From assembly GCA_051362555.1 (NCBI GenBank), contig CM120642.1, positions 28,954,001 through 29,018,000 on the forward strand: a stretch of 64,000 nt of DNA. The letters are read 5' to 3'. The notes beneath the pieces are model-generated. The model worked only from the letters and a program-made list of their open reading frames with translations, had not been told where the DNA came from and searched no databases. The translations under genes were made by a program, and so were the position numbers. Within the stretch, counting starts at the first letter, position 1, and each line of letters begins with the position of its first letter. This document shows, piece by piece, positions 10,055 to 63,208 of this stretch. Origin of the DNA: Lingula anatina. Taxonomy: Eukaryota > Animalia > Brachiopoda.

Positions 10055-10483
10055 ATGGGCCCAAAACGATTCATCTTAGCTTTCCTTGTGATTGTTTCCG
10101 TTGGAGCCGCTTCAGCCCAGAAAGAAGGAATCAGATACTTGCTGTTGGACTACAGCCCCGACATTCTTTCTGAAGAGGTGCACGGGTTAGATGAGCAGCC
10201 GCCATTGAGTGGAGTGCCAGAGTTCGGGGAGCTCCCTGAGGAAGAAGAAGAAGAAGAGAAAGAGGAGAAGCTGAGTCAGAGCACAGAACCAAGTGCCGAA
10301 ACCTCAGATGACAGGACCTTCGTGGTCCCGCTCCGTGCCCAGCTGCGTGGGCAGTACGGCAGTCCTATGGCCTACAGTATGTATACAGGGGGGCTGAGGA
10401 GATACGTGGACATCTATAACCGCGTCATCGGGAACAACCAGAGATACAGGGGCCAAAAATATGCCGCCACTTACAACTACTAG
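10055..10483 (+). CDS. Cluster gene 1: secreted 142-aa protein with acidic poly-Glu core and basic Tyr-rich C-terminus
   Basis: Signal peptide MGPKRFILAFLVIVSVGAASA; EEEEEEEKEEK tract; tail RYRGQKYAATYNY*; gtgagt donor at 10499 and ttcag acceptor near 10782 (3'UTR intron). Confidence 0.85.
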   Translation: MGPKRFILAFLVIVSVGAASAQKEGIRYLLLDYSPDILSEEVHGLDEQPPLSGVPEFGELPEEEEEEEKEEKLSQSTEPSAETSDDRTFVVPLRAQLRGQYGSPMAYSMYTGGLRRYVDIYNRVIGNNQRYRGQKYAATYNY

Positions 10484-13400
10484 TGATGACAATACTGGGT
10501 GAGTTGTGAGATTTTACTTCTTCCCTCCCTCTCTCTCTCTCTCTCTTTTCATATATTTTATACATACATAGATGGATAGGTATATTGCTACTTTTCCCGA
10601 AATGCCTTTCAATACTTGTCAATAACCGTCTTCATCTAGTCTGATTAATGCACGCCTTTTTGAAGTGACGCGTGTATCATGAGATGTATTTTTGACAGAA
10701 AAATGTCATGATTGGTTATTAACGCGCACATTTTGTTTGTCTTTTATGAGATGTGTATTGTTATTATAAACTCAAATTTCAGGTTTCAGCCAGCCAACAC
10801 CTTATACTGGATAACTGAACCAACCCGAGTTACGTACCCGCACCCCATTACTTCTGAAGATGAACTCATTTAACAAGAAGGTCTGGTTGGTATTTTTCGT
10901 GACTGTGAACGCCACCACAACTTTCGATGTTTCCGACTGTAATGAACAATTACATTTTGGAATTTTCCCGGGCAAAATGCCAGCACTGTACCCATTTGAG
11001 TCATTTCAATGGTAGTTGCTTCCAGATTCTAAACATACAAAAACTGCATGGAAAACGAAACAGATTGATGGACCTTTGGGAATTATAAAAATGAACTATG
11101 GTCTCTTTTCTTGAATACTGTACTTTTTATATACAATGCATAAATAAGGAATCGACTAGGGAGAGGGAAGCAAAGTAAAACTATTTTATCTTAATTCTGT
11201 AAGCCCTTAAAAATAAACAATAAAGACCGTAACATTCTGAAGTCAAACTTTCAGAATCTAATAACATTTTTTATATAATTTATAATTGTAATTGTCTTAA
11301 GTGTAAATAAGATGAAATCTATTACACTAAAGGCATTGTTTAACTTTATTAAAATGAACATTATTATTATTATTGTGTGATACTTGTTGTTTTTCATGTA
11401 AGGCCAAAAGATGCATTATGTATACACGTACGATGTAACGTATAGAGAGTACTGGCATGAAACACTGCTCTCTGAACATCATACTATTATATCATAAAAA
11501 GTGCTAAAAGTGGTATCTCAATCTCTCCGTACTTTGCTTGATAAATTTGTACACGTAATTTTTTGTAAAGACAAAGATCTAATCGATATTCCGCACGCCA
11601 GTAAGCTGCTTTTTCGATATGAACTTAGTAAATCATTGCAACGAACATACTCAAATGCAATCTACGTGGCTTTCATTTATGTGAATAAATATAAAATATA
11701 AATATATAAATATAAAATTTGATTCACACCTCACTCCGCAACCCACTACTGAGTTTTCATATCCATAATAAGGCTAGAAGAGACATCGGTATATTAATCT
11801 TAACAGAGGGATTTTGATAGTGTTTTTGCTTGATTTTTCCCTGTAGCCACTCTAGCCATATGTATTTATTCAGGGCACTGTCATCCAAATGTGTGAATAT
11901 GTTTTGCTCCCTAAGAAATAAAGTGTCACTTTTGGACCCCGAATTGCAACTTTTTTAAAGTTTCAATTTTTAAATTAAATTCAATTAAAATTTCCGTTTC
12001 TATTGATTCAGTGGGTAGGCTTATATCAGTCATATTTCTTTTGAATCACAAAATTTTCTTCCATTTGTCACGAATAACTTAAATGTTTATGTTTATAAAA
12101 TAACTAAATGAGTGTTAGTTTGTATTTGTGTGCGCACGTGTGTGCGCGTGTGTGGTTTGGGTCGGGTGCTTGTGATTGCAATCAACAAACCTATTGCCTT
12201 TCTGCGTAAAGAATTGGTATTATTCAGTCTTTTTTGCAATATGTAATAAAACACTATCTAAACGATCGCATTAGAATCCTTCTTTTGTTCTTTGTTCTTG
12301 GTTCTTCTTTTAAATTGCTATTGTGACATTCTTTTGATTAAGTTAAGATTTCCGCCCTCTAGAGATTGGTATCTTCTACCGATTTCGAAAACTAAACGAT
12401 TGACGAAAGGCACTCAGGACTCTGCACCCTGTGACACCCGGAAAAAATACTCTAAAAGTCAATGTCGAAGATTTATACACTCTCCCGTTAAGCACGTTGT
12501 CTACAGCATTTGAATAGTGAAGACAATTTTTACAGCTTAAAAAATTTGCATGCTTTGAGGCTGATGCCCCCCACCCTCGCCAACTGCCCCAGCTTTCCAA
12601 AACAGAATGGCAGATTCAACCCCAGTCCATAACCAAAAGAGAAGATCATATCAATAGGAATCAACTCTTCCCAGTGAACTATGTTCGTTAAATCCGAGAT
12701 AACTGTTCCTCAACGTCATAATGAATCTATATCTGGCATAAAATGATATTGTAGGATACAAACTATTACATGTCAAGACGTGAAAATTGTGTTGGGTGTG
12801 GTTACCATTGTGACGGTGTTAATTCGTTAAAAATGAATGTTCTATACGTCCAAAATATACATACAAAGGAAAAACGCCGATAGCAAACCGCAATTAAAAA
12901 GCGGCGAGAAAACGCTGAGGTCTTCATCGATGGCGTTACATTTACTTAATTTTTTTTTTAATTCTTCATAAATGCATATTATAGTGAAAGGTGCATGACA
13001 GAAAAGGTCCCGTCAGGTGTTTGACATGAAAGTGTTTTCTAGAATTTAAAGCCAATTTTTTTCTAAAATAATACAAAATATTTTAGAACTCAACAATACG
13101 TCCTTGCCATTTGAAGTGAAAATTTCAAAAACTTATCACAACAGTAAAATTTACAAGATGGCAAAAGCAGTTTGTTAGTGGTAATGAACCGTTTCTCGTT
13201 AAGTTTTGAATATTTGGCAACGTTTCAGGATATCGTGAAATGTACTAAGTCATCCAGCGTATAATCCTCATCATTAAAAAACGCAGTAAAAAGATAAACC
13301 AATTCTCTTAAGTATTCTAATGCTTTTTAATATTTTAGTATTTTTAAATACGTATTTTTAAAACGATACACTATAATGCCGCATTTATATGGAAGCAAGA

Positions 13401-15074: not shown

Positions 15075-15082
15075 TATATAAA
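15075..15082 (+). promoter_or_regulatory. TATA box of cluster gene 2
   Basis: TATATAAA about 185 bp upstream of ATG 15262. Confidence 0.6.
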
Positions 15083-15261
15083 TGCCAAAAACTTCTCCCA
15101 GGTGCCCGCCCCTTCTACGCCCTGTTTAGTGGTAACGTCCAACCTTGCATTATATCATTTCACCTCACACTTGCCAGAAGGAGAAGACAGAAACAAAAAA
15201 CAATATGGTGTGTTTCAATGCAGCCTGAAAAGACACAAAAAAAGGTGAAAAAAGGCAAGAC

Positions 15262-18200
15262 ATGGTGGTCTCATTGCAACTCGCTCTTCTCGTGGCATGC
15301 GCGATGTCAGCACGTGCGACGTTTCTTCCGGCCAGTCCTCCATTTAACCCTTATCCGGGGTTGAATGGTCCAGCACCGCCATCACAACTTGTTACAGAGA
15401 TTGACCTCGGCTTTTTCCCATTTTTTCCGACTGGTCCCCTAGACAATGATTTTGGGGCTTCGCCTGGAAATTTTAACAAGGTCCCAGGGGCCGTGTCTAG
15501 GAGGGTAAATACCGGTGCGGTCAATAGTGCTGGTTCAGGTCAGAAGTTGGGCTTATCACGGACAAGCACATTTGGAGCTTCTGCTGCTGGCAACGCCAAT
15601 ACGGTACCCAATGGCTTACCTCCAGTTTTTCCTAAAACAAGTGCTTCTTCTCAGAATGCATATACCGCAAGGTTCCTGGGAATGCAGAGATCTGGGACGG
15701 TAAGCAAACCCGATAGAAATCAGGCCAATCAAGCCAACATGGCAAATATGGGACGGTCCCCAGTTTTTCGTAGGGTCTCTGAGGTTCCGTTTATTAGCAA
15801 AGGAAGCGTTCCTGCTCAGCCTTTGGTGACAGGTGGAAAATCTATCACCATGCAGTATACAGGCAATACCAACCAGGGAAGTCTTCCTCCTATTACAGGT
15901 GCTACATCCCGAAGTAGCCAATATGGAGGCAACACCAACCAGGTGGTCTTTCCTATTCTTCCAGCCAGAAAACCCCCCCACCTCCAATATGGAGGCAACA
16001 CCAACCAGGTGGTCCTTCCTATTCTTCCAGCCAGAAAACCCCCAAACATCCAATATGGAGGCAAAACCAACCAGGGAAGTCTTCCTCCTAATACAGGTGC
16101 TACATCCCGAAGTAGCCAATATGGAGGCAACGCCAACCAGGTGGTCCTTCCTATCCTTCCAGCCAGAAAACCCCCCAACCTCCAATATGGAGGAACCGCC
16201 AACCAGGGAAGTCTTCCTCCTAATACAGGTGCTACATCCCGAAGTAGCCAATATGGAGGCAACGCCAACCTGGTGGTCCTTCCTATTCTTCCAGCCAGAA
16301 AACCCCCCAACCTCCAATATGGAGGCAACACCAACCAGGGAAGTCTTCCTCCTAATACAGGTGCTACATCCCGAAGTAGCCAATATGGAGGCAACGCCAA
16401 CCAGGTGGTCCTTCCTATCCTTCCAGCCAGAAAACCCCCCAACCTCCAATATGGAGGCACCGCCAACCAGGTGGTCCTTCCTATCCTTCCAGCCAGAAAA
16501 CCCCCCACCCTACAATATGGAGGCAACACCAACCAGGGAAGTGTTCCTCCTCTTACAGGTCGAAAGTCCCTAACAAGCCAGTATGGAGGCAACAACAACA
16601 AGGTGGCCCTTCCTTTTCTTCCAGCCGGAAACCCCCCAAACAGCCAATATGGAGGGAACACCAACCCGGGAAGTGTTCCTTCTCTTGCAGGTGCTAAATC
16701 TCCAACTAGCCAATATGGAGACAAAGCCAACCAGGTGCACATTCCTATTTTAACAGGTGGAAAATCCCCAACCAGTCAATACGGCGGCAACATAAACCAG
16801 GGTAGCGTTCCAGGCGGGAAACTCTCAACCATCCAATATGGCAGTAACTCCAACCAGGGTAATATTCCTATTTTGACAGGTGGGAAATCCTCAACCATCC
16901 AATATGGAGGCAACACTAAGCAAGGAAGCGTTCCTATTTTTGCAGGAGGAAAACCCTCCGCCATCCAGTATGGAGACACCATCAACCAGGGTAGCGTTCC
17001 TATACTTCCAGGCGGAAAACCCTCCACTAGCCAATATGGAAGCAACATCTACCAGGATAGCATTCCTATTCTTACAGGTGGAAAACCCTCCACAAGCCAA
17101 TATGGAGGCAACATCAACAAGGGAAGTGTTCCTCCTCTTACAAGTGCAAAATCCCCAATCAGCCAATATGGAGGCAACGGGAACCAGGTGCACGTTCCTA
17201 TTTTAACAGGTGGAAAATCATCAACCAGTCAATACGGCAGCAACAGCAATAGCAATAGCGTTTCTATTCTTCCAGGCGGAAAACCCTCCACTAGCCAATA
17301 TGGAGGCAACATCAACCAGGGTAGCGTTCCTATTCTAACAGGCGGAAAACCCTCAACTAGCCAATATGGAGGCAACCTCAACCAGGGTAGCGTTCCTACT
17401 CTTACAGGTGGAAAACCCTCCACAAGCCAATATGGAGGCAACATCAACAAGGGAAGTGTTCCTCCTCTTACAAGTGCAAAATCCCCAATCAGCCAATATG
17501 GAGGCAACGCGAACCAGGTGCACGTTCCTATTTTAACAGGTGGAAAATCATCAACCAGTCAATACGGCAGCAACATCAACCAGGGTAGCGTTCCTATTCT
17601 AACAGGCGGAAACCCCTCCACTAGCCAATATGGAGGCAACATCAACCAGGGTAGCGTTCCTACTCTTCCAGGCGTAAAACCCTCCACCAACCAATATGGA
17701 GGCAACATTAAGCAGGGTAGCGTTCCTATTTTTACAGGCGGAAAACCCTCCACTAGCCAATATGGAGGCAACATCAACCAGGGTAGTGTTCCTATTTTTA
17801 CAGGCGGAAAACCCTCTACTAGCCAATATGGAGGCAACAACCAACAGGGGAGCGTTCCTATTTTTACAGGCGGAAAACCCTCCACCAACCAATATGGAGG
17901 AAACACCAACCAGCATAGCGTTCCTATTTTAAAAGGCGGAAAACCTTCCATCAGCCAATATGGCAGCAACACCAATCAGGGAAGCGTTCCTATTTTTCCA
18001 GGCGTAAAACCCTCCACCAACCAATATGGAGGCAACATCAACCAGGGTGGCGTTCCTATTCCTCCGGGCGGAAAACCCTCCAGCAGCCAATATGGAGGCA
18101 TCAACAAAAAGGCAAGCGTTCCTGCTCTGTCTTTGCCGACAGCTGGAAAAGTCAGAAAGGTTTCAATTATAGACCAAGACAAGAAAAAATATGTAGCTTT

Positions 18201-20115
18201 GCCCCCCTTGGTGAAAGGTGGAAAACCCGTTAAGGTCCATAAAAGAGGCAGAACCAACCAGGGCCAAGTTGCTCTAGAGAGAAACAAGTCCAGCAGGTTA
18301 GTAGGTGGAAATAACGGCGAGACCCGGAAAAGAAGCAAGTCCAGCCAAAGGAAGACTTCTTCTTTGATGACAGATGGAAGAAACGGTCAAATCCGGAAAA
18401 GAGGAAAGACCAGCCAAGGCAAGATATCCAACCTGCCTTTAAAAAGCAGTAAGATCCAGAACAGAGGCAAAACCAACCAAAAAATGTATACCCCGCCTTT
18501 TGCGACAAAGGAAAAAAACAGGAACAGAGGAAAATCCAACCATGGAAGCATTTCAATTCTGACAGCTGGAAAACCCTCAACCATGCAATATGGAGGCAAC
18601 ACCAACCGGGGAGGCATTCCTGCTCTGTCTTTGGCGACAATTGGAAAAGTCAAAACGGTTTCGAAAAAAGACCAGGGCAAGAAGAATTATGTTCCTATAT
18701 TCCCCTTGGAGAGAGGCGGAAAACCCGTGAAGATCCAGAAAAGAGGCAGGACCAGCCAGGGTCAAGTTGCTATAGTTGCTGCTATAGAATCGTTAAAAAG
18801 CGCTAGTATCCAGAGGAAGGACAAGACTAGCACCTTAGAAAGAGAGATCCGGAAAAGAAGCAGGGCCAATCAAAGGAAGATTTCAGGCGGAAAATCCTCG
18901 AGTATCCAATATGGAAGCAACACCAACCAAGGAACTATCTTGACAAGTGGAAAACCCTCCGCCATTCAATACAACACCAACCAGGGAAATTACGGCGAGA
19001 CCCAGAAGAGAAGCAGTAGCAGTCAAAGAACGATTTCTATTTTGCATCTAGCGACAGGTGGAAAAGCAAGTAAAATCCATAACAGAGGCAAGACCAACGA
19101 AGGTAAGCAATATATCCCGTCTTCTGTGGCAGATAGAAATATCAGGAAGAGAAGCAAGCCCAACCAGGAAAAGGTCTCTATTCTGCATTTGTTGACAGGT
19201 GGAAAAAAGGATAGTAAGCAGGACAAGAACAACCAAAGGAGGGTGCCAACAGAGGGTGTGGCGAAAGGTGCACCGCATAGCAAGACCCTGCAGGTAGGCA
19301 AAACTAACAAGAAACAGATTCACGTGAAGACTGTCGCAGGAGGCCGCATAGTGGCATTCAAACGAGATGTGCCTGCAGCAAGTAAGCCACAGGCTCTTGA
19401 CACTTCTATTGTAAAAGTTAAATCAAAGGGATTGTCTTCAGTCATAGGAAGTGGTTCACAAAACGTAAATGCTTCTTATGGATCGTTGACTCTGCAAGGA
19501 GTGGCCAACCCAAATGTCAATGGAACATACCTGTTAATTGGCAGTTATGGATCTGACTCTAGCAAGGGTGTAAGTGTCCGATGGGTTCGTCATGACACAG
19601 TGTTTCCCTTCACCAGCTACTCCACTGGCAAAAACCCAAATTCTGACGGTCACCTAAAACCTCAGCCACCTGGCACTTCAGACCGGAGCTTCACACCGCA
19701 AAAACTTGTTACAATGTTAATGTTAAGAAGTGGTTCACAAAATGAAACTGCCTCTGACAAATCATTACACGTACCGCATGTCGCTAAACCGCATGTCAAT
19801 GAATCAAAATTGATGGCCGTTGTTAATGGATTGTTAAATGCCCAACGAATCGCTGTTCCGTATGTCAATGAATCAGGAATCAATGATGATGGTGATGAAG
19901 GTTCAGGTTATTCCGATGGCCCAGATACACCACTCACATATGTCACTGATGCCCCTGCAGTCGGCGTTGGGCACGAAGAGTCAGATTCATCCATTTCTGC
20001 TAAGACATCAGGGTTCGTGGAGAACATGATTCCAGGCACCCTGTATGCGTCCGGTAACAAGGCAGGAAGCATAATGTACAGGGTACCTCGGAATAGCGAG
20101 GAAAGAAGCCGTTAG
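15262..20115 (+). CDS. Cluster gene 2: 1617-aa single-exon secreted repetitive protein (21-aa QYGGN repeats, Lys/Arg-rich domain, unique C-terminus)
   Basis: Uninterrupted 4.85-kb ORF; signal peptide MVVSLQLALLVACAMSARA; roughly 35 repeats like SQYGGNINQGSVPILTGGKPST. Confidence 0.92.
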   Translation: MVVSLQLALLVACAMSARATFLPASPPFNPYPGLNGPAPPSQLVTEIDLGFFPFFPTGPLDNDFGASPGNFNKVPGAVSRRVNTGAVNSAGSGQKLGLSRTSTFGASAAGNANTVPNGLPPVFPKTSASSQNAYTARFLGMQRSGTVSKPDRNQANQANMANMGRSPVFRRVSEVPFISKGSVPAQPLVTGGKSITMQYTGNTNQGSLPPITGATSRSSQYGGNTNQVVFPILPARKPPHLQYGGNTNQVVLPILPARKPPNIQYGGKTNQGSLPPNTGATSRSSQYGGNANQVVLPILPARKPPNLQYGGTANQGSLPPNTGATSRSSQYGGNANLVVLPILPARKPPNLQYGGNTNQGSLPPNTGATSRSSQYGGNANQVVLPILPARKPPNLQYGGTANQVVLPILPARKPPTLQYGGNTNQGSVPPLTGRKSLTSQYGGNNNKVALPFLPAGNPPNSQYGGNTNPGSVPSLAGAKSPTSQYGDKANQVHIPILTGGKSPTSQYGGNINQGSVPGGKLSTIQYGSNSNQGNIPILTGGKSSTIQYGGNTKQGSVPIFAGGKPSAIQYGDTINQGSVPILPGGKPSTSQYGSNIYQDSIPILTGGKPSTSQYGGNINKGSVPPLTSAKSPISQYGGNGNQVHVPILTGGKSSTSQYGSNSNSNSVSILPGGKPSTSQYGGNINQGSVPILTGGKPSTSQYGGNLNQGSVPTLTGGKPSTSQYGGNINKGSVPPLTSAKSPISQYGGNANQVHVPILTGGKSSTSQYGSNINQGSVPILTGGNPSTSQYGGNINQGSVPTLPGVKPSTNQYGGNIKQGSVPIFTGGKPSTSQYGGNINQGSVPIFTGGKPSTSQYGGNNQQGSVPIFTGGKPSTNQYGGNTNQHSVPILKGGKPSISQYGSNTNQGSVPIFPGVKPSTNQYGGNINQGGVPIPPGGKPSSSQYGGINKKASVPALSLPTAGKVRKVSIIDQDKKKYVALPPLVKGGKPVKVHKRGRTNQGQVALERNKSSRLVGGNNGETRKRSKSSQRKTSSLMTDGRNGQIRKRGKTSQGKISNLPLKSSKIQNRGKTNQKMYTPPFATKEKNRNRGKSNHGSISILTAGKPSTMQYGGNTNRGGIPALSLATIGKVKTVSKKDQGKKNYVPIFPLERGGKPVKIQKRGRTSQGQVAIVAAIESLKSASIQRKDKTSTLEREIRKRSRANQRKISGGKSSSIQYGSNTNQGTILTSGKPSAIQYNTNQGNYGETQKRSSSSQRTISILHLATGGKASKIHNRGKTNEGKQYIPSSVADRNIRKRSKPNQEKVSILHLLTGGKKDSKQDKNNQRRVPTEGVAKGAPHSKTLQVGKTNKKQIHVKTVAGGRIVAFKRDVPAASKPQALDTSIVKVKSKGLSSVIGSGSQNVNASYGSLTLQGVANPNVNGTYLLIGSYGSDSSKGVSVRWVRHDTVFPFTSYSTGKNPNSDGHLKPQPPGTSDRSFTPQKLVTMLMLRSGSQNETASDKSLHVPHVAKPHVNESKLMAVVNGLLNAQRIAVPYVNESGINDDGDEGSGYSDGPDTPLTYVTDAPAVGVGHEESDSSISAKTSGFVENMIPGTLYASGNKAGSIMYRVPRNSEERSR
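15850..18110 (+). repeat. Coding tandem repeat, ~63-bp unit with higher-order structure
   Basis: agccaatatggaggcaac recurs every 60-63 bp. Confidence 0.95.
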
Positions 20116-22195: not shown

Positions 22196-22231
<36 letters not shown>

Positions 22232-22237
22232 ACTATC

Positions 22238-23347: not shown

Positions 23348-24687
23348 TTATCCCTTGTAGCCTGGGGCTCCGTAACCCAGGTAACCGTTCCCATAGTTAC
23401 CAGCCTTGATCCCGACGCCATAGTGTCCTCCTAGGTAGTAAGTTCGTGCATACGGCTCATACCCTCCGCCATATCCTAGGTCATGACCATAGCCATATTC
23501 GCCTTTGAGACCAGCTCCGTAGGGGCCGTACATACCGCCGTGTCCGCCCTTATATCCGGCGCCGTACGCTGAATGCGGGTACGGAGAGTACTTGTATTGC
23601 ATTGGCTGTTTGGTCTCGTAATGGCCGCCACCGTGCGCCCAGTAAGGGGGTGGGGCTCCGTAAAAGGGTTTTTGATAGGGCATGGGGGGAGAGGAGTGGA
23701 AATATTTCTTTGGTGGTAGAGGGGGAGGGGGGTAATAAGGTTGAGGTATGGGGATGATGGGAGCCGGCGTGACATTGTTATTATTATTATTGTTGTTGAC
23801 AGTTGGGAAATGTTTACCGTAGTCGATGAAATAACGAAATCTGCGATAACTGTGTTTTTTTGCTTCGTTGTCTTTGTATTCCGGGTCTAAGGGTTCCTTG
23901 TCTTTGTAACCGTACTTGAAGTAATCTGGATAGGAGTAGTCTATAGACTTAGATAGGCCGTACAGCGGGGGTGGGGCTACTGGAGGGCCGTAGTCAGGGT
24001 AGGAGTAGTCTGGTAAAGGACCTGCCGGCAAATGATAGGCAGTGGTCAGCGACATAATGGACAATGCGGACATCACCGCTGCCACAACCTTACTGGACAG
24101 TCCTGTAATTACATAAAGGTGAACATTTATTAATGCAGCTGACATGTTCACGTATCCAAGCAGACACAGGCACGCGCGCGAACGCACACACACACACACA
24201 CGCACACGCACACACACACACGCACGCACGCACGCACGAGGTCAAGTGAAAGCGACAGACAGGAATACTGTTTTCACTACCTGTATACATGCACTTAATT
24301 CATAATTTAATTAGAACTAAATTTTATGAAATCATAACATATCCACTAAAATTTTAGTCCTATAGCAGCCGAATCTTTAATAAGATTAATTGATAAGAAT
24401 ATCCTAGGAACCATCAAACTAACTTGTTTAATGGATGCTAGATTGAACCAATTATTTCACCGATCTGAAAATGCATTAATATGAGCCAAAAGAATGATAT
24501 GCTTCTAATTTGACATACTCTATTATGGGCCACAATGAAAGACAATGAAAAAGACATCAAAATCAATAAAGATTAAATAGAAGAAAATCAACATTTTGGT
24601 TCTTTGAATACGTAGAAAAAGAAATGTTAAAATTCAACGTTTTAAGAACGCTGGATAATTACCAAGGGTTCCCATGCCGGCGACCAT
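23348..24687 (-). CDS. Cluster gene 3: secreted 259-aa Tyr/Pro/Gly-rich protein ending GYKG* (exons 24687-24663 and 24102-23348)
   Basis: Exon 1 MVAGMGTL-G|gtaatt joins ttacag|GA-LSSKVVAAVMSALSIMSLTTA in phase 1, giving a signal peptide; YSYPDY repeats, poly-Asn, poly-Pro and a GYG-rich tail follow. Confidence 0.85.
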
Positions 24688-26806: not shown

Positions 26807-27169
26807 CTACAGATAGAGAGCAGAGAAGTTAGGGTATCCGTAATTGTACGGCCCGTACCCAGGAATACCATATGCCGGGTATCCCACTCCAGGATAGGCT
26901 GTCCCGGGGTACACGTATCCCGTCACTGGGTATCCTGTCCCGGGGTATCCTGTCCCGGGATATCCCGTCCAGGGGTATCCCGTCCCGGGGTATCCTGTCC
27001 CAGGATATCCCGTCACTGGGAAACCATATTGTGAGTATATCGGCGGCTGCAAGCCATATGGGTCCCCGGGGTATGGCACGCCAGGCCCAGGGAGATGCAA
27101 GCAGAGTGCGAGATCTAGGCACGACAGAACTAATAGAACGGAGACATAAACCCTCAGCAAGTAAAGCAT
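26807..27169 (-). CDS. Cluster gene 4: secreted 120-aa protein with (YPGTG)n repeats
   Basis: Signal peptide MLYLLRVYVSVLLVLSCLDLALC; 15-bp coding repeats; TATAAAT at 27237-27231; gtcagt donor at 26789. Confidence 0.85.
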   Translation of the reverse strand: MLYLLRVYVSVLLVLSCLDLALCLHLPGPGVPYPGDPYGLQPPIYSQYGFPVTGYPGTGYPGTGYPWTGYPGTGYPGTGYPVTGYVYPGTAYPGVGYPAYGIPGYGPYNYGYPNFSALYL

Positions 27170-28020
27170 TTTGATTCGACAATTGCAACGGTACCTTAAG
27201 TACCACAAAGATTGAACGGGGTTCAGTTTAATTTATAGACTATTTTGGTGAAGGAGAGCCAGGGGCACCATGCAATTTATATATATATAGATATCGAGAA
27301 GGAAGTGAGTCACGCTTGATATCACATTTATAATATTATGCTTTCTAGTACACTAAGGCTCTGTTCTCACAACTTTTAGATCGATCTATCACCGCGGGGA
27401 GTCTCACTAGATTACTGTCAGATAATCCCCCTTAAGTGTCCGTCCCCGCCTACTACAAGCTTTAAGGGGTAATTAACTTTCGTGTCCGCCCGGCTGACAG
27501 CTATTTAGCGTGAACCCCCAGGGAGTTAGGTCGATCCAATGTAGGTCGATCTAATCTATGAGAATGGGGTGTAAGGCGTTGCTCCACTCACATCAGGCAG
27601 TTTTTAAGGCTAATTATAAGAAGCTGACACAAGGTCGCTGGACTAAAAGCGTTTGCTATGCTCATGTTAGTTATTATCAGATAAAATATAGTACAACACG
27701 ATATCGTTCACCGCATTTATTTCATTGTTTTAGAAAAACCTATATTTGTCTAGCATGATGTGTTAATAAAATTACAATCGATGAAGTCATGAATCATGAG
27801 AAAACGGCCGAACTATATTTAATATGTCAATGAAGATAATTTTTTGTTGAAAAGGACAAATTTATGCTCGCCACCTTCACCTTTGTCATATACTGATAAT
27901 AATAGTTCATGGCAGAATTCAAAATAGCTGTAATAAAGGTTCTCTTCAAACTATTGACAAGTTGGGAGATGAATGGACGGTTGATTATACGAGGCATGAC
28001 CAAACTCTTCCCTGGTAAAA

Positions 28021-28118
28021 ATGGCAAGATCTCATGGAGTAGGGGTCCTGGTGGCAGCCCTTGTGGTGCTACTGATGCTCCCTGGGGAAGACAGAATATG
28101 GAGGCACATATGGGTAGG

Positions 28119-28161
<43 letters not shown>

Positions 28162-28256
28162 GACGGTAGTCTGCGTATACTCCCGCTTTCATGGTTACAC
28201 CCAAGCCAGATCTGGACCCTATTTCTGTGGCAATGTACAGCATATGTACAGCAAAG

Positions 28257-28287
<31 letters not shown>

Positions 28288-28379
28288 ACCGGCCGCCGAT
28301 TTACAACAAGCCGCAATTTTACAGCCAACCGCCAGTGCTACATGTACCTACGAACCCGCCGATACCATATAAAGGGTAG
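28021..28379 (+). pseudogene. Cluster gene 5: frameshifted or mis-assembled secreted-protein gene ending IPYKG*
   Basis: Signal peptide MARSHGVGVLVAALVVLLMLP and family tail NRPPIYNKPQFYSQPPVLHVPTNPPIPYKG* lie in different frames, separated by (TA)n at 28121-28158 and poly(G) at 28256-28285; gtaagt donor at 28405. Confidence 0.6.
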
Positions 28380-29769: not shown

Positions 29770-29988
29770 TTACCCAGAACTCCGAAGGTTTCGAAGGTAG
29801 ATGAAGAGCCTTACGAGAGAGCGTGGGTCGGTCCGTGCCTTGTTGTACAAGAAAATTCGAAGTAGATATCTCTGAAGCGGTGGGTCGTAGGTGTAGCCCA
29901 AGTAACCTTCTGATGACACAGGCGTTGTGACACAAAGCAGAAGCCATGCCATGGCCAACAGAGCGCACCACTTCTGAACGGCTGCCAT
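29770..29988 (-). CDS. Cluster gene 6: secreted 72-aa basic Leu/Arg/Tyr-rich peptide
   Basis: Signal peptide MAAVQKWCALLAMAWLLLCVTTPVSS; TATATAT at 30044-30038; donor caag|gtaatt at 29756 and a ttttag acceptor near 29562. Confidence 0.75.
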   Translation of the reverse strand: MAAVQKWCALLAMAWLLLCVTTPVSSEGYLGYTYDPPLQRYLLRIFLYNKARTDPRSLVRLFIYLRNLRSSG

Positions 29989-31599: not shown

Positions 31600-31830
31600 T
31601 TAACCCTTGTAAGGGAATGGGTGTGGATAGTAAGGCCTCTTGTAGTAGGGTCTGTAAATTGGTCTGTAAATTGGCCTGTAGATTGGTCTGAAGTAATTCC
31701 CATGGTAGATACGACCACGTCCATTGTAGTTGTCATAATAGTAGCCCCTAATTCCCAGCTCCCCGGACACAGAGCACAGGAGCAGGGTGGTCAAGGCGAG
31801 GACAGCGAGCAGCTTCTGGAAACTAGCCAT
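31600..31830 (-). CDS. Cluster gene 7: secreted 76-aa Arg/Pro/Tyr-rich peptide, (RPIY)n, ending FPYKG*
   Basis: Signal peptide MASFQKLLAVLALTTLLLCSVSG; TATAAAAA at 31884-31877; gtgagt donor at 31579. Confidence 0.88.
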   Translation of the reverse strand: MASFQKLLAVLALTTLLLCSVSGELGIRGYYYDNYNGRGRIYHGNYFRPIYRPIYRPIYRPYYKRPYYPHPFPYKG

Positions 31831-32382: not shown

Positions 32383-32542
32383 CCAGTGTGACAGGAATGA
32401 AAGTCCGCTAGAAACCATAGTCCGCTTCCTATCACTTAGTACAGGTGACATTCGTCCTATATACTAACCTCAATTCTCCAACTAACCCTAAACTGTACTA
32501 ATCATAAGGCAGCCGCCCAGACTTCCATTCCTGTAACACCGG
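32383..32542. mobile_element. Putative MITE (160 bp) with 23-bp terminal inverted repeats
   Basis: Left end ccagtgtgacaggaatgaaagtc versus right-end reverse complement ccggtgttacaggaatggaagtc (20/23 match); internal ctaaccctaa motif; no clear TSD. Confidence 0.6.
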
Positions 32543-41773: not shown

Positions 41774-42877
41774 TTAGTCATACCCATGGTAGAAATTTCT
41801 CGGCTTCTTGCTCCTGAAGACTCCTGTAAAGCCAGACTTGTAACGGGGCCTAGTGGGAGCACTGCGGGCCATGTAATAGTAGCCTTTAATCGGGGTACTA
41901 GGGAGACTGTAGTACCCAGTCGAAGTAGGACCAAAGGATGCACCGAAAGTAGGAACGAAAGATGAATCTGGAGCAAAAGAGGATCCTCCGGCCGCGATTG
42001 TGCCACCGGCGCTGCCACCGAATAAGGCCTGGGTACCCGCTACGCCGCTTTGAGCTGGACCAGCAGGCATACTTAACCCCGCTGTGGTGACACCATTGTT
42101 GTTCGAAGCGGCCGATCCGGTCAAAATAGAGAGGAGAGAGTTTGGAGATGCTGTGATTCCAGGTGCAGTTGCGGCAGGGGGGAGGCTACCAGGCACACCG
42201 GTCATTAAAGGAAAGCCAGACGCAGCAGTTCCCCCGAAATTCATCACGTTTGCTGGACCAGGAATTGGTGCAACGGGTGCCGTAGTAGCGGTAATTGGGC
42301 TAGAGCTGACTGGTCCCCCTAAACTCTGGAGGATCGCGGCTGCTTGGGCAGCTGTTAACGGTTGAATTCCACCAGCAGGTATACTAGAGATTGAACCAGT
42401 ACCGGGCATAGTTGCTGCCCCTAAATTCAGAGGCACCGTGTTCATTTGACCAGACGCTGGTAGAGGTCCACCGGGGACACTAGAACTTGTTGCAGTCCCG
42501 GATGAAGCTGTTCCCACCAAAATCTGAAGAAGCGTGCTTATTTGAGCAGGAGTTAGCGCTTGAATTCCACTAGTAGGTATTGGACTTGGCCCAGGTAAAG
42601 TTGGAGTCCCGGGTGAAGCTGTTCCCCCCAAAATCTGAAGAAGCGTGCTTATTTGACTAGGAGATAACTGAATTCCACCAGTAGGTATAGTAGTGGCTGC
42701 ACCCGGAACAGTTCCTCCCCCTAAATTCTGAAGCAACGCGTTAATTTGAGTTGGAGTTAACTCTCCACCATTCGGATTCGGCGGTAAAATGACTTGGGCA
42801 TCTGTTGGCCACATGGGTGCATTTGTTAACAACAGAAGCATGCAGACGATGGGTCCCCGAGAAATGGAAATTGCCAT
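41774..42877 (-). CDS. Cluster gene 9: secreted 367-aa Gly/Pro/Thr/Ala/Ser-rich protein with LTPxQIxxLLQxLGG repeats and basic KKPRNFYHGYD* tail
   Basis: Signal-like N-terminus (PIVCMLLLLTNAPMWPTDA); TATAAAG at 42970-42964; donor TAA-G|gtaggc at 41772. Confidence 0.88.
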   Translation of the reverse strand: MAISISRGPIVCMLLLLTNAPMWPTDAQVILPPNPNGGELTPTQINALLQNLGGGTVPGAATTIPTGGIQLSPSQISTLLQILGGTASPGTPTLPGPSPIPTSGIQALTPAQISTLLQILVGTASSGTATSSSVPGGPLPASGQMNTVPLNLGAATMPGTGSISSIPAGGIQPLTAAQAAAILQSLGGPVSSSPITATTAPVAPIPGPANVMNFGGTAASGFPLMTGVPGSLPPAATAPGITASPNSLLSILTGSAASNNNGVTTAGLSMPAGPAQSGVAGTQALFGGSAGGTIAAGGSSFAPDSSFVPTFGASFGPTSTGYYSLPSTPIKGYYYMARSAPTRPRYKSGFTGVFRSKKPRNFYHGYD

Positions 42878-45138: not shown

Positions 45139-46149
45139 TTAGCCGCCGTTTTGTCCGGATGGGGGCGCTCCCAGGGTCGACAACAAATTCTGCATGCTGC
45201 TGGAAACCATTAGAGGAATACTGGACCCTAGATTCGTTCCCCCGGGCTGATTAAGACTCGGGTTGGTGAAGAATGATGACGCCGGTATGGCGCCATTCGC
45301 GGGTTGCACGTTAGCATTGCCAGCAGCGTTCCCCGGAACACCTAGGACATACACAGGGACTATTGCCTGTTGTCCAGGACCTGCAGCACCGTTGGAGGCC
45401 GAACCCAGGGAGCTCAGAACGGACAGTGGTGAAGTCGGGCTTGCTGGTGAACCCGCCGCAAGGCTAGGGTTGGTGTTGCCATAGCCTAGCAGCGACCCTT
45501 GGGGAACAGCGCTTCCTGCTCCAGTGCCAGAAGCCGCGTTCTCAATGAGGATCCCGGAACCATAGGGTTGGACTTGGTACGGCCCGCCATTTCTGAAGGG
45601 TGTGGCTGAGGGCGTTGTCCCAACGCCGTATGGACTTGGCGTATATCTGTTTCCAATACCGTATGGACTGGCCGGATATGCACCACCGTTGCTGTAATAC
45701 CTAGTTCCAGCGCTGTATGGATTTCCTTGGTATGTACCGTAGAGGCTACTGGCATAAGGGCTGGCTGGGTATGCTCCAGTGTTGCTGTAGCTACCGCCAG
45801 GGCTGCCTTGATAGCCTGAACCAGCAGCGTAGGGGCTTGGCGGGTACGTGCCGTGCCTACTGTACGGCATGTTGGCATAGGGCATACCGGACCCGGGGGA
45901 GGGCTCTGGTCCACCGTACTGTGCGCTGGTCATTTGACCGGGTCTGAGGTTCCTTGGGTACCGCAGGTAGTTGACAGAAGGCCCGGCCACCATCCCTGGG
46001 GCCCCTGGTGACCCAGCGGCATACGGACTAGGTGGGTACTGCGAGTAGAAGTAACGACCCTGGGGAGGCTCGGGTTCCCGGGGATCTAGGTGATTTCCAT
46101 GTGCTTCGCTGAGAGCCAATGTTACAATGAGAAAGGTGATTGAGATCAT
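45139..46149 (-). CDS. Cluster gene 10: secreted 336-aa Gly/Pro/Tyr/Ser-rich protein with YP(P/A)SPY repeats
   Basis: Signal peptide MISITFLIVTLALSEAHG (an in-frame ATG at 46197 is an alternative start); TATATATA at 46276-46269; single ORF. Confidence 0.87.
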   Translation of the reverse strand: MISITFLIVTLALSEAHGNHLDPREPEPPQGRYFYSQYPPSPYAAGSPGAPGMVAGPSVNYLRYPRNLRPGQMTSAQYGGPEPSPGSGMPYANMPYSRHGTYPPSPYAAGSGYQGSPGGSYSNTGAYPASPYASSLYGTYQGNPYSAGTRYYSNGGAYPASPYGIGNRYTPSPYGVGTTPSATPFRNGGPYQVQPYGSGILIENAASGTGAGSAVPQGSLLGYGNTNPSLAAGSPASPTSPLSVLSSLGSASNGAAGPGQQAIVPVYVLGVPGNAAGNANVQPANGAIPASSFFTNPSLNQPGGTNLGSSIPLMVSSSMQNLLSTLGAPPSGQNGG

Positions 46150-48290: not shown

Positions 48291-48728
48291 TTATTGGAGA
48301 TTGCTGTATGCATCCTGGAACCACACTTTTCCACTCTTCTTCTTTCCCTTTAAGGAGCCCCTCGGCAGGAGGCCATTCACTGGTCCATTATTGTGTTTTT
48401 GGTCGTGATAGGAGAAATAGATATCAGGTGTCAGTTCTTTATGCTTAATGGCGTGCCTCCCACCCGATTTTTTCTGGGAAACGTTATAAGCAACGAGACT
48501 CTTGTAACCTCGACCGACGCTTGTGTTGGAATTAGAGGTAGACTTCCCTCCTCGCCGGCCGTAAACGATGTCCCTCGTGCGTTGAAACAGATTGAAATTG
48601 TACTGTGGTCCTGATAGAAATATACTGTAAGGATCCCGTAAGATGTTGGAAAACGGCGCACTTACGGTCCTCTCAGTCCAAACAAACAGAAGTCCCAGAA
48701 AAAGAACATATTTTGGGAGAAGAACCAT
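48291..48728 (-). CDS. Cluster gene 11: secreted 145-aa basic (Lys/Arg/Gly/Ser) protein
   Basis: Signal peptide MVLLPKYVLFLGLLFVWTERTVSA; GC-richer coding island; same strand as neighbours; no obvious repeats. Confidence 0.7.
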   Translation of the reverse strand: MVLLPKYVLFLGLLFVWTERTVSAPFSNILRDPYSIFLSGPQYNFNLFQRTRDIVYGRRGGKSTSNSNTSVGRGYKSLVAYNVSQKKSGGRHAIKHKELTPDIYFSYHDQKHNNGPVNGLLPRGSLKGKKKSGKVWFQDAYSNLQ

Positions 48729-50685: not shown

Positions 50686-50723
<38 letters not shown>

Positions 50724-53258: not shown

Positions 53259-53597
53259 TTAATGATATCCTTTGTAGTAGTTTCTTGGTTTCTTGCTGTT
53301 ATAGCCAAGAGTAGCACCGTAATATTTGGCGGTTGGAGCTTGGTAACTTTGGTAGCCAGTGCCATAGCTGGGGCCGTAGCCATAGCTGGGACCGTAACCA
53401 GCGCCGTACATGTTGCCGCCGAACCCGAGGCCATATGGCATGTTGTAGCCAGAATAAGGCCCGTAGTTGCCGTAGCCGCCGTAACCGCCGTAGCCGCCGT
53501 AGCCGTATGGGCTGCCGTAACCGTATGGTCCAAAAGCTGTCACCACGGTCAGTGAAACCAGTGCGACCAGAAGGATGGACTTCACGTTTGCTGCCAT
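53259..53597 (-). CDS. Cluster gene 12: secreted 112-aa Gly/Tyr-rich (GGY)n protein ending KKPRNYYKGYH*
   Basis: Signal peptide MAANVKSILLVALVSLTVVTA; TATAAAA at 53697-53691; donor TAA-G|gtgaga at 53257; shematrin/prisilkin-like composition. Confidence 0.9.
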   Translation of the reverse strand: MAANVKSILLVALVSLTVVTAFGPYGYGSPYGYGGYGGYGGYGNYGPYSGYNMPYGLGFGGNMYGAGYGPSYGYGPSYGTGYQSYQAPTAKYYGATLGYNSKKPRNYYKGYH

Positions 53598-57575: not shown

Positions 57576-58682
57576 TTAACCATAGAAGTAACCTGGGCCG
57601 CCGTATCCGCCAAAATTGCCTTGGTAACCACCGTAGTTTCCATAGCCAGTTGAAGCGCCTGATGAAAAAAAAGTGCCGTGGTTATCCAGGAGGAAACAGA
57701 AGTACATAAAAGTTGGAATTATAATCAACGCAGCATTTTTTAAGGATTTTCTAAGAAAAACAATTAAGATACACAAACAATGGATGTACGTGAATCGTAC
57801 TTCTAAGAAATAATAGCATTATGTCATCATTAGAATGCTTATCTCAATGTGTAAATAAGCACTTTCCACACGTAATAGATAATCTGTCAACGTGTTCATA
57901 TTTCGTTTGATGTCTAGAGGGATATCAAGAGGCCAATTGTCGACTTGCTTTTGCAAAAAACTGTCATTTCAAAAGGTACCTGGGTATCCGAAGCCTGAGT
58001 ACTGCGAGCTTCCTCCGTACGCATTAGATCCATAGCCGTACTGTGGCGCGCCATAGTTGCCATAGTAACCGGCCCCGGTACCGTAGCTACCAAAGTTACC
58101 GCCGAAGTTACCATAGTTACCATACCCTGTGCCGTAATTACTTCCTGTGAAAATAATAGAAAATATATAGGCCTACATATTGGTAACTCCAAAGGAAACG
58201 AGAACCAGAACTGCCTGTAAACAAAATCTGTTCCTATGACTTTAATTACTCTAGAATATGTATCTTGTTCATTTATGTATTTGATATCCAGTTTTAATAC
58301 AAACTCTTTTTTTTTTTTTGAAAAAATAACGATATAACTATGTTTTATTTGAGTTCGTGTTTTCATGCCCCAATCATCAGCTGTGTTCGTGCACGTTTGC
58401 TTGTTTGCTTGCATGTCTGCGTTCGTGTGTGCGCGTGCAAGTGCGCGTGTGTATGTGTGTGCATGCACCCGCGTGTCTCACGGCCAGACTCTCACCATAG
58501 TACGGTCCCCCGGGGCCGTAGAGTCTCCCCTGGTCCGGACTGTCCTCTACATAGTACCCTCTCCCTGCCTGGTTCCTGGGGATATAGGAACGGTACTGGT
58601 AATAGTTCTGTCCTATTACGGCAAAACACTGCGGCAAGTAGAGACCCAGAAGGCAGAGTATCACAGCTGTGGTAGTGGACAT
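57576..58682 (-). CDS. Cluster gene 13: secreted 144-aa Gly/Tyr/Asn-rich protein; exons 58682-58496, 58144-57980, 57658-57576
   Basis: Signal peptide MSTTTAVILCLLGLYLPQCFA; phase-1 introns (G|gtgaga...cacag|GA and G|gtacct...catcag|GC); GNYG/GNFGG repeats; ends GPGYFYG*; gtgagt donor 4 nt after the stop. Confidence 0.85.
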
Positions 58683-60764: not shown

Positions 60765-60836
60765 CGGTGTGTGTGTGTTTTAGTGAGTGAGTGTGCGTGC
60801 GTGCGTGTGTGTGTGTGTGCGTGTGAGAGAGAGAGA

Positions 60837-60889
<53 letters not shown>

Positions 60890-60890
60890 T
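60765..60890. repeat. Compound (GT)n/(GA)n microsatellite
   Basis: Read directly from the sequence. Confidence 0.9.
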
Positions 60891-62689
60891 AGGGTTGTGG
60901 ACATGCAGTGTTGGGACCACGCGAGTGCGAGTCTATAGAGGGCTGCGTGGGGAGGAGAGGCGTTAGATTTGTTTCGATAAAGACGATGTGTTTGATGTGA
61001 AAATAATTTAAAAGAATAAATTAAGATTCAAATATTTTTAATTGTGCTTGTTCATCTCAAACAGTGTGACGCTTAAATGAATAAAACTAAATATTTGGAA
61101 CAGTATATGCACATCACTGCAAGATATGTAATCATATCTACCTGTCTTTACCTGTTAAATCTCTTAATTATATATGACCTGCCTTCATTTTTATTTTGAT
61201 AAAGAATTCCAAGATTATGAGATTTGTTTAATTTTACTACTTTCATTTAATTGTCTAGTGAAGCAATTTTTGTGGGATAACCTTTAATTCTACGGGAGTT
61301 TTATGATTGATATCAAGACAATATAAGGGACAGTAAACAAAATTGGCATTACCTTAGATCTCGCCGTTTTGCCATTAACTTTCCTTTACTACAAGTACAT
61401 TTGTATCTCTCATGGCACAGCGTATTCTTTGTAATCATTGGACACCCTCAGCTTAAAGATTTCTCATTTTAAAGTATAATTTTCTGTTTACATATTTAGG
61501 TGGTCACTTTTCGGCGTGACGGCCTAAGGACCCGGAAAATTTAGTAAATTGTTTTTACTCCCAAATAATTATTCACGATATTACATTCACAGATTCCTTC
61601 AGACACCAGAAAGTGCATCTTATCATTTTTTTTTTTGGGGGGGGAGGTGTCTCGAAATATGCCACATTTCTATTACTTTAAAATTCTTTTAAATTTCTTG
61701 ATCTGTGTCTCAGAGTCGTCCGTTTATTATATTAATAGTGTGTCACAGGCATAACTTCTAAAAATCCATCTATTATTATAGCAATCAAATATTTAATGTA
61801 AGTGTGAATGAAGAAAAAACAATATAGTAAGATAAAATGATTTTATTCGCTTTGTTTGTACAGTGTAAAACGAAAAGATTATTTCCAAAATTCCACCTCC
61901 TGTGATTCCGAAGAAAAATAAGTGACTCGTCAAAACTGAAATATAAATATCCCATTCTCTTACGATGTTCTCTCTTCTCTGAAGGGAATCCACGAGGAGA
62001 ATCGGGCTGCTGAGTTGAGGCGACAACATTTGAATCTCAAAGTTGCACAAATGCTTCTTACCGTCTCAAACATACTAGTAAACACAGGGAACATTAATGT
62101 TTTAGTATGCATCGTTCTCCTGTAGTACTGTGAAAAACGCTATATCCCCTTCTTTTGGTGTTAGGGAACGGATGAGCCTAAAAAACTAACGACTTAATAG
62201 AAATGTGTATACTGCTCTTTTTCCACTAGGAATGTGCTGCACTTCTTGTGTAACGTTTTTTCTTTATCGCTCGCGCTTGAAGGTGCCCGCCCTTTCAATT
62301 TTTCGCTTGGTACTAACCGTCTATTTTAGGTAGTAGGGGTAGTAGGGGTCCCTGAAAGATATTTGATACATAGTTTTAGTTTGATTGATGTGATTATTAA
62401 GAGAATACGATAGGCGCTCATTTGCCTTTAACCCTACATAAAAATGTTAACTGATAACAAACGTGAGCTTTCTTTTCTCGCGCATCTTTGAAAGGGTACA
62501 ATTCTTAGTTCGAGTAAAATTCACTTTTTCTTCTTAACTATTAAAGTATTTTCGAGGGAAATGAAATCATTTTAATAATATTAGAGATTCGAATACGATA
62601 GACATTTGTAAACTACTGGTAGTTAAAAAAATTAAGCAAAGTAAATGAGCAGACAAGTGTTAAAATAGATAAACAAACTTAAAAATTAA

Positions 62690-63208
62690 TTAAGAAATGA
62701 AATAATTGACGCTTGAAAAAAAACTCCACCTACCAGGGTTTTGCCCATATATGCTGCTGCAGTATTCGGGATAGTAGTAGCAGTATTGGCTGTTAGGTGG
62801 ATACCCCGGATACGACGGATAGCCGGGGTAAGACGGATACCCTGGGTAACTGTGATGGCCACCAGTAGGTGGATACGACGGATATGTTGGATATCCAGGA
62901 TAGTAACCAGGGTAACCATGGTTAGTATTTTGCCCGGGGTAATACGGGTATCCGGCGTAGGATGGATAACCACTGTAGCCTGGGTAACCGAAATGGCTTC
63001 CTCCGCCGTAGTACTGTGGTGCACCATAGTTCAAGCCATAGGGCTGACCGTAGTTCAAGCCATAGGGCTGACCGTAGTTCAAGCCATAGGGCTGACCGTA
63101 GTAGCCGCCGGCGTAGTACTGGGGCATTTGCTGACCACGCACGCCGGTGTTCACTGAAACCAAGAGGACCGCGATGACTGCGGCACACACGCCTCTGAAA
63201 GCCTGCAT
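62690..63208 (-). CDS. Cluster gene 14: secreted Tyr/Gly/Pro-rich protein with (YGQPYGLN)3 and (YPG/YPS)n repeats plus a CYYYPEYC motif
   Basis: Signal peptide MQAFRGVCAAVIAVLLVSVNTG; TATATAAA at 63274-63267. It probably splices at CCT-G|gtaggt (62733) to a mini-exon 62127-62102 giving ...QNPVLQENDAY*, instead of reading to 62690. Confidence 0.88.
   Translation of the reverse strand: MQAFRGVCAAVIAVLLVSVNTGVRGQQMPQYYAGGYYGQPYGLNYGQPYGLNYGQPYGLNYGAPQYYGGGSHFGYPGYSGYPSYAGYPYYPGQNTNHGYPGYYPGYPTYPSYPPTGGHHSYPGYPSYPGYPSYPGYPPNSQYCYYYPEYCSSIYGQNPGRWSFFSSVNYFIS

Follow-up and report, generated by a model that had tools for sequence, protein, structure and literature searches.

A cluster of fourteen genes for predicted secreted, often tyrosine-rich proteins beside CEP135 in the brachiopod Lingula anatina

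Introduction

The closest described counterparts of the genes treated here are the shematrins and KRMPs of pearl oysters and the shematrin-like proteins of Mytilus and Dreissena, which are secreted, lack domains, are rich in Gly and Tyr, are mostly basic and often end in a basic tail that contains Tyr. Shematrins combine a signal peptide with a repetitive Gly/Tyr-rich body of GnY repeats and are strongly and specifically expressed in the mantle. They bear a C-terminal signature of the RKKKY, RRKKY, RRRKY, IRRKK or PRKKY type, and KRMPs a Lys/Trp-rich domain directly after the signal peptide (PMC3896809, PMC9210306). The Gly/Tyr region of KRMP-3 binds chitin (PMC4498902), and seven shematrins lie on seven scaffolds of the very fragmented 2012 Pinctada draft (PMC3325083). 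Lymnaea has secreted basic Gly/Tyr proteins whose zone of expression lies near the periostracal groove, next to that of a peroxidase; they were selected by bioinformatics instead of shell proteomics (PMC6007483). Here we describe a comparable locus in the window, the whole stretch of 64,000 nucleotides of Lingula anatina DNA that was analyzed (contig CM120642.1, positions 28,954,001 to 29,018,000), where 14 gene models for predicted secreted proteins occupy 53 kb next to CEP135.

Loci of similar architecture occur in other animals. The vertebrate epidermal differentiation complex (EDC), the SCPP cluster and the chorion and low-complexity cuticle clusters of insects hold short, fast-evolving genes that are united by position and exon layout, not by protein similarity, and each is defined by co-expression in one tissue. 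EDC genes typically have an intron in the 5' untranslated region (UTR), and most of their products are intracellular. Clusters of lineage-specific Gly/Tyr structural genes are of an already known kind; the brachiopod instance is new.

Results

Gene content of the cluster

Six-frame scans together with reading of the sequence gave 14 gene models between 10055 and 63208, 13 of them intact and one (G5) frameshifted. Spacing is 0.9-5.0 kb, and no other genes were found between members. Eleven models lie on the minus strand and three (G1, G2 and G5) on the plus strand. Number, position beside CEP135 and strand bias agree with an earlier description made from the sequence alone (hereafter the sequence-only reading), and the motifs that it quoted are all present: QYGGN in G2, YPGTG in G4, RPIY in G7, QQQYGNPYG in G8, YPxSPY in G10, GGY in G12, GNYG in G13 and YPG in G14. 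The members are as follows (aa, amino acids; nt, nucleotides).

G1, 10055..10483, plus strand: 142 aa; signal-like start, acidic poly-Glu middle, Tyr/Arg tail; predicted donor 15 nt past the stop.
G2, 15262..20115, plus strand: 1617 aa in a single open reading frame (ORF); about 34 units of a 22-aa QYGG...KPSTS repeat; basic C-terminal half, net charge +128.
G3, 23348..24687, minus strand: 259 aa; exons 24687-24663 and 24102-23348; Tyr/Pro/Gly-rich, ending YKG*; 3'-UTR intron 40 nt past the stop.
G4, 26807..27169, minus strand: 120 aa; GYPGT repeats, 20% Tyr; predicted donor 17 nt past the stop.
G5, 28021..28379, plus strand: frameshifted; signal-like start, RPIY-like motif running into (TA)19 at 28121-28158, G30 at 28256-28285; ends PYKG* as in G7.
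G6, 29770..29988, minus strand: 72 aa; basic Leu/Arg/Tyr peptide with a Gly end; 3'-UTR intron 13 nt past the stop.
G7, 31600..31830, minus strand: 76 aa; RPIY repeats, 26% Tyr, net charge +8, ending YKG*; 3'-UTR intron 16 nt past the stop.
G8, 36827..38656, minus strand: 272 aa; exons 38656-38570, 38021-37931 and 37467-36827; QYGNPYGAQQ decapeptide repeat.
G9, 41774..42877, minus strand: 367 aa; Gly/Pro/Ala/Ser body with short helical repeats; Tyr/basic tail SKKPRNFYHGYD; intron 1 nt past the stop.
G10, 45139..46149, minus strand: 336 aa; YPxSPY repeats, then an Ala/Gly/Ser/Pro tail; stop-adjacent donor absent.
G11, 48291..48728, minus strand: 145 aa; net charge +14, not low-complexity; TATA box and stop-adjacent donor absent; the least typical member.
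G12, 53259..53597, minus strand: 112 aa; GGY repeats, 27% Tyr; tail SKKPRNYYKGYH common to G9; predicted donor 1 nt past the stop.
G13, 57576..58682, minus strand: 144 aa; exons 58682-58496, 58144-57980 and 57658-57576; GNYG repeats, 22% Tyr; 3'-UTR intron 4 nt past the stop.
G14, 62326..63208, minus strand: about 166-172 aa; YGQPYGLN and YPG repeats, 26% Tyr.

The 3' end of G14 is uncertain; a donor at 62733 scores 4.76 and an exon from 62351 is likely. G5 is either a pseudogene or a slippage error of the assembly, because its frame breaks at (TA)19 and at G30, both of which are prone to slippage. Within the 28100-28290 stretch of G5, the (TA)19 microsatellite starts inside codons for RPIY, which is also the motif repeated in G7, so that the coding repeat looks to have seeded it. 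In the G2 repeat (15850-18100), two unit types alternate in the first part, and the period is kept for about 34 units while residues drift near-neutrally.

Shared exon layout and probable common origin

The stronger sign of shared ancestry is an exon layout with an intron just past the stop codon. Splice donors scoring at least 4 stand 1-17 nt past the stop in 7 of the 14 genes (G1, G4, G6, G7, G9, G12 and G13). Among 5104 non-coding windows that follow stop-like triplets, 2.3% have such a donor within 45 nt (p 1e-8). On the donor matrix used, six real CEP135 donors score 0.7-6.1. CEP135 itself has no stop-adjacent donor. RNA joints begin exactly at the predicted donor in G6 (+13), G7 (+16), G9 (+1) and G13 (+4); that of G3 starts at a weaker one (+40). 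A 3'-UTR intron no more than 40 nt past the stop is thereby RNA-confirmed in five genes. The joints of G3 (at 23308) and G6 (at 29757) were seen in run X7, as was that of G7 (31143-31584, with GT-AG ends). The G9 joint (41340-41773) occurs in X7, X8 and X6 (1 read in the last), and that of G13 (56954-57572) is carried by 6 reads in X8. A further joint, 44752-44856 at G10, was rejected as an intron: 21 unmatched letters lie between its parts, and the splice sites in the window are weak.

Some protein ends are also held in common. The last 30 or so residues of G9 and G12, ending SKKPRN[FY]Y[HK]GY[DH], are clearly alike (z 7.1 against shuffled sequences); the next protein pairs reach z 4, for which composition may account. 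The end YKG* is common to G3, G5 and G7, and RPIY-like motifs to G5 and G7. Together, the stop-adjacent 3'-UTR introns and the G9/G12 tail point to a common origin by tandem duplication. Common descent is likely but not proven, because the intron control was not genome-wide. The pattern of EDC- and chorion-type loci, many adjacent genes with a common exon layout and little protein similarity, is what we find here: 14 genes in 53 kb, with the donor in seven and RNA confirmation in five. The stop-adjacent intron is a means of tracing paralogy where protein alignment fails.

Coding evidence and transcription

Most of the 14 models are real genes. In G8, 12 decapeptide units differ at 2, 2 and 42 first, second and third codon positions, with 40 synonymous and 4 non-synonymous codons; this repeat is under purifying selection. 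Neutral change would make roughly one in four codon differences synonymous. The repeats of G4 and G7, with few units, show the same synonymous trend, and read differences in G7, G9 and G10, drawn from the 40 best-supported of each read comparison, comprise 18 synonymous and 9 non-synonymous codons. The G2 repeat lacks such bias (77 synonymous against 198 non-synonymous), and support for G2 therefore comes from its open 4.85-kb frame, its fixed 22-aa period and sparse reads.

RNA reads from seven runs (X1, X3, X4, X6, X7, X8 and X9) were compared over 11 genes, G2-G7 and G9-G13, with G2 taken outside its repeat core. The reads come from a lineage about 90% identical to the window, and depth is therefore underestimated. 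In X7, reads fall on 8 of the 11 tested genes, G2 (3' part), G3, G6, G7, G9, G10, G11 and G13, although those on G2 and G11 are sparse and the G13 bins lie near repeats. X8 has reads on G9, G10, G11 (few) and G13, and X9 traces on G2, G3 and G7. X1 and X4 have almost no reads on G2-G7, and X3 and X6 almost none on G9-G13. RNA support is thus low-level and run-specific. High depth at 27374-27575, 32400-32500, 51659-51732, 57381-57527 and 59150-59496 was rejected as gene expression, since most of these reads continue into unlike sequence, as reads on dispersed repeats would. The short dispersed repeats at 27374-27575, 32400-32500, 51659-51732 and 59150-59496, some with inverted ends, reach RNA depths of up to about 2500 in all runs and look like miniature inverted-repeat transposable elements present in many other transcripts.

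Predicted secretion, composition and promoters

All 14 models begin with a hydrophobic stretch (11-aa Kyte-Doolittle mean 2.35-3.41) with no acidic residue before its end; for comparison, 24 of 125 ATG-started ORFs of at least 70 aa in the window reach 2.0, and these 24 include the cluster genes. The signal peptide that the sequence-only reading saw on every gene is thus borne out by a hydrophobicity heuristic, not SignalP, and secretion is predicted. Its statement that no globular domain is recognizable also holds at the curated Pfam cut-off, which none of 14 proteins or exon pieces passes (G5 left out; G13 entered as two exons).

The label of low-complexity Tyr/Gly/Pro proteins fits about half of the members. 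Tyr makes up 17-27% (at least 16.8%) of 7 of the 13 intact models (G3, G4, G7, G8, G12, G13 and G14). The other six are poorer in Tyr (G2 3.4%, G9 2.3%, G11 6.5%, G10 8.9%, G1 9.2% and G6 12%), and G1, which is acidic, and G11 fall outside low complexity with an entropy of 3.9 bits. Tyr averages 13.6% over 12 mature chains (without G2); CEP135 has 1.7%. Most tyrosines have a Gly neighbor in G12 (19 of 24), G8 (35 of 42) and G13 (20 of 27); GGY occurs three times in G12, twice in G13 and once each in G3, G8 and G14. Predicted structure suggests disorder: mean pLDDT is 37.8 for G9 (from a single sequence, giving a low-confidence fold), with 0.39 for G3. Tryptic peptides of 7-30 aa are absent from G4 and number at most one each in G6, G12 and G14.

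Two regularities of the chain ends were noted post hoc. Gly is C-terminal in 6 of 13 chains (G3, G5, G6, G7, G10 and G13; 2.0 expected, p ~0.008), and Tyr stands among the last three residues in 9 of 13 (4.6 expected, p ~0.008). Amidation of the Gly-ending chains is possible, given the peptidylglycine hydroxylase (gene 05602) in the 2015 shell proteome.

A TATA[AT]A[AG] motif 30-200 nt 5' of the ATG was found in 8 of the 14 genes, against 10.5% of random windows (p 2.5e-5), in keeping with the earlier claim that most genes have TATA boxes. No common promoter k-mer survives multiple testing (best p ~0.001 among 1800-4800 tested).

Likeness to described systems

The cluster resembles the shematrin group in general character, and G12 most closely, with GGY runs and a stretch 2 mismatches from GGGYGGYGK. 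The specific marks of that group, which the sequence-only reading had cited, are missing. None of 13 cluster C-termini (G14, with its uncertain end, left out) has an end of the RKKKY, PRKKY or RRKY type. None of 13 proteins has the KRMP block: the 25 residues that follow position 22 never contain more than one Lys and one Trp. Furthermore, unlike in shematrins, the repeats are mostly of YP, PY and QYG types, and the host is a phosphate-shelled brachiopod.

The Lymnaea proteins Lstag-sfc-6, -7 and -8, proposed peroxidase substrates, are similarly secreted and basic, with Gly-flanked Tyr, and are not common to other shell proteomes; sfc-7 and -8 were picked bioinformatically, and the parts of their description consulted do not mention genomic clustering. 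They are likened to the cluster by composition, with no sequence homology shown, and the mantle-zone expression is that of Lymnaea. In Lingula itself, the tandem Ala-rich shell proteins 18759-18761 (Luo 2015) are alike in being Lingula-specific, secreted and tandem and in having a GYGY motif. However, they contain 43-57% Ala and were found in the mineralized shell, whereas the cluster proteins contain 3-12% Ala and do not appear in the available shell protein data.

With the EDC, SCPP and chorion loci there is no homology. One-tissue co-expression defines those loci, whereas the present one is known from its genes and patchy reads, and its common mark, an intron just past the stop, differs from the 5'-UTR intron of EDC genes. 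Plant extensins and prisilkin-39 are alike in Pro/Tyr or Gly/Tyr bias only. The hallmark of extensins is the Ser-Pro3-4 repeat, and a Ser-Pro3+ motif occurs 0 times in 13 cluster proteins.

Relatives and database records

G9 is present letter for letter in NCBI, and G3 is 95% identical to the RefSeq entry 'extensin-3-like' XP_023930141.1. Exact look-up of first-ATG models found 1 of 10; allelic differences may explain some absences. Homologue searches with three members, whose low complexity lowers the power of such searches, returned only the Lingula record of G3, only G9 itself among 1.84 billion representatives, and nothing for G12 among 3262 candidates. These three genes appear Lingula-restricted as far as the searches reach. 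Atlas look-alikes of G12 and G3 are mostly arthropod cuticle-like and prisilkin-like clusters at 0.76-0.83, all below 0.9 and at the level of a lead. The names 'extensin' (the RefSeq label of G3) and 'prisilkin-39' (the label of the nearest Atlas cluster) were rejected as reflecting composition only, an Atlas value of 0.83 being within reach of shuffled sequences.

No description of the locus, nor of such a cluster in a brachiopod, was found in the literature searched, outside which lie subscription papers and bioRxiv supplements that may bear on novelty. The available parts of PMC3325083, PMC9057340, PMC4453069, 10.1101/2024.05.28.596352 and 10.64898/2026.03.09.710468 do not mention it, and those of the PMC13121700 supplements lack CEP135, extensin, prisilkin and shematrin entries.

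Genomic setting

The cluster is flanked by the 3' end of CEP135.

CEP135 3' exons, 1514..6497, plus strand: flanking, outside the cluster; last coding exon 6417-6497.

One CEP135 exon in the window matches Lingula anatina proteins at 99% identity; the five remaining hits reach 54-68%. The molluscan framing of the sequence-only reading thus gives way to a brachiopod host, and radula, girdle and operculum drop out. Candidate structures left are the periostracum, chaetae, pedicle cuticle, burrow mucus, egg coat and larval shell. RefSeq records for the CEP135 3' exons, G3 (XP_023930141.1) and G9 share a length of 148,601 bases and most likely derive from one scaffold.

The last codons and stop of CEP135 (…QAVAEMTSV*) recur as six copies in a 62-bp tandem array in the 3' UTR (6466-6835, and 7013-7137). 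RefSeq isoforms X1 and X2 of CEP135 differ in 3' exons (5196-5252 and 6417-6497). The gene is split, several RefSeq records carrying it between them. A chimeric gene model in Lingula is suggested by one protein cluster, in which a partial CEP135 falls together with a 1356-aa record and the CaMKII isoform XP_023933563.1. No tRNA genes were found in the window.

Discussion

The reading that we favor, tentatively and at somewhat short of an even chance, is that the products are substrates for tyrosine cross-linking in an unmineralized layer of chitin and protein, most likely the periostracum, which is deposited at the mantle edge. The cluster would go back to a single small gene that had a 3'-UTR intron, encoded a secreted protein and was copied repeatedly; bodies would later have been rebuilt by internal repeat expansion, with only the exon layout and some tails staying alike. 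Epidermal cells in a narrow band would secrete the disordered chains by way of the signal peptides. Gly-flanked tyrosines may bind chitin, and a peroxidase or tyrosinase may then oxidize them to dityrosine or quinone links, giving a tanned sheet in which the Tyr-poor members G2, G9, G1 and G11 could serve as fillers, spacers or charge partners. Lingula has a chitin-organic periostracum of about 4 um (PMC13425148). Its shell proteins include a peroxidasin that is expressed in the mantle, and it also has a tyrosinase (PMC4595640, PMC13425148). Of the sclerotized structural locus proposed in the sequence-only reading, the structural-protein part remains the best explanation; tissue and cross-linking are what we infer from composition and analogy.

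A series of observations weighs against the periostracal reading and the common origin on which it draws. Stop-adjacent donors are missing from G2, G10, G11 and G14 and weak in G5 and G8, and their background rate was taken from random non-coding stretches within the window and not from other genes of Lingula. G9 and G12 are the only pair clearly homologous in protein sequence, and DNA self-comparison of the window gives no gene-to-gene match. Transcript levels are low, about 1.5-10 reads per kb per million records, and shematrin-like genes are among the highest mantle transcripts in the zebra mussel (PMC9210306). No reads fall on G4 (in 4 of 4 runs) or G5, and G12 has almost none in X7 and X8 and a few in X3. 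The genes as a group are not untranscribed, a possibility that the sequence-only reading had itself raised, given the low-level reads on 8 of the 11 tested; these three remain almost without any in the run that covers the eight. The co-regulation that it had proposed is unproven, because the RNA runs carry no tissue label, and promoters with no common k-mer do not speak for it. None of the 14 novel shell proteins of Luo 2015, in the part available, matches any of the 14 models in length, isoelectric point and composition; the nearest pairing, G1 with SMP 14146, was rejected, since Gly content differs and 14146 has a Shisa match that G1 lacks. In the available supplement of the 2026 proteome (PMC13425148), the prefixes XP_0133867 and XP_0239301, which records from this scaffold should carry, occur 0 times, against 773 XP_0133 entries. 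Finally, chaetae and pedicle cuticle are also chitinous, and the chemistry fits them equally well.

The proteomic absence must be read with the preparation of the material in mind. Comparison of the cluster with the shell proteomes is indirect, because few members have a known accession. The 65 shell proteins of Luo 2015 include collagens, Ala-rich tandem proteins, peroxidasin and peptidylglycine hydroxylase (PMC4595640), and collagens and Ala-rich proteins dominate the bleached-shell proteomes (PMC4595640, PMC13425148). Both studies treated the shell with NaClO, and the 2026 study states that the periostracum was removed (PMC4595640, PMC13425148). Bleaching away of the periostracum would explain absence from both. 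Consequently, this absence argues against a role within the mineral layers and is as predicted for a periostracal, chaetal or pedicle role. No named structural proteins of the Lingula organic outer layer were found in the available parts of the shell literature examined.

Low and patchy RNA depth would also be expected of genes active in few cells, for example those of chaetal follicles, and Lingula has both chitinous chaetae and a pedicle (PMC4595640). That the proteins harden chaetae or pedicle cuticle by the same chemistry, instead of the periostracum, is accordingly the rival that we take most seriously, though we regard it as unlikely; the lead-level Atlas look-alikes of arthropod cuticle type lean toward it, and the closest documented analogues by composition, which are mantle-edge proteins, lean away. 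The near silence of most tested genes in X1, X3, X4 and X6 would fit a stage-restricted program, such as an egg coat or an unmineralized larval shell. Clustered Gly/Tyr genes build the insect chorion. Lingula embryos bear a chitinous shell (10.1101/2024.05.28.596352). We nevertheless hold this very unlikely; egg-coat proteins of mollusks usually have ZP domains, and Pfam found none here.

The heterogeneous composition, the promoters and the uneven expression could instead reflect a mixed neighborhood of fast-evolving secreted genes, in which the small cationic G5, G6, G7 and G11 would be host-defense or signaling peptides. G6 and G7 are short and cationic, with mature lengths of 46 and 54 aa and net charges of +5 and +8, and both contain amphipathic stretches; the Gly ends of 6 of 13 chains, a substrate for amidation, would suit such peptides, although that test was chosen post hoc. 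The stop-adjacent intron links G6 and G7 to the large repeat proteins, the YKG* end links G7 to G3, and the large members G2, G8, G9 and G10 look like fibers or fillers; we hold this account quite unlikely. Equally improbable as the egg coat, in our judgment, is an adhesive or mucus of the 3,4-dihydroxyphenylalanine (DOPA) type that fixes sand to the tip of the pedicle or coats the burrow. The abundance of Tyr beside Gly, Lys or Arg and the very basic G2 resemble the glues of mussels and tubeworms, but the Tyr-richest G4, G8, G13 and G14 are almost without Lys and Arg, unlike typical wet adhesives, and a Ser-rich acidic partner was not observed.

The periostracal reading has a bolder form, a brachiopod 'periostracum differentiation complex', which we consider rather doubtful. 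A single co-regulated locus, derived from one small gene and independent of the molluscan shematrins, would here encode most of the tyrosine-cross-linked outer coat on which the phosphate shell is laid, while being invisible to shell proteomics and largely to annotation. How such genes escape annotation is illustrated by the locus itself, where exact records are lacking for 8 of 10 first-ATG models, in part perhaps through allelic differences, and G12 is without any match.

For the organic outer layer, which proteomics left undescribed, the 14 genes offer concrete candidates from which probes can be made directly. Their localization would bear on wider matters, given that the common origin of brachiopod and molluscan shells, and of brachiopod and annelid chaetae, is stated as open (10.64898/2026.03.09.710468). 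If the genes map to chaetal follicles, they would be candidate chaetal matrix proteins. If they map to the periostracal groove, brachiopods and mollusks would have reached the same Gly/Tyr tanning solution via unrelated genes.

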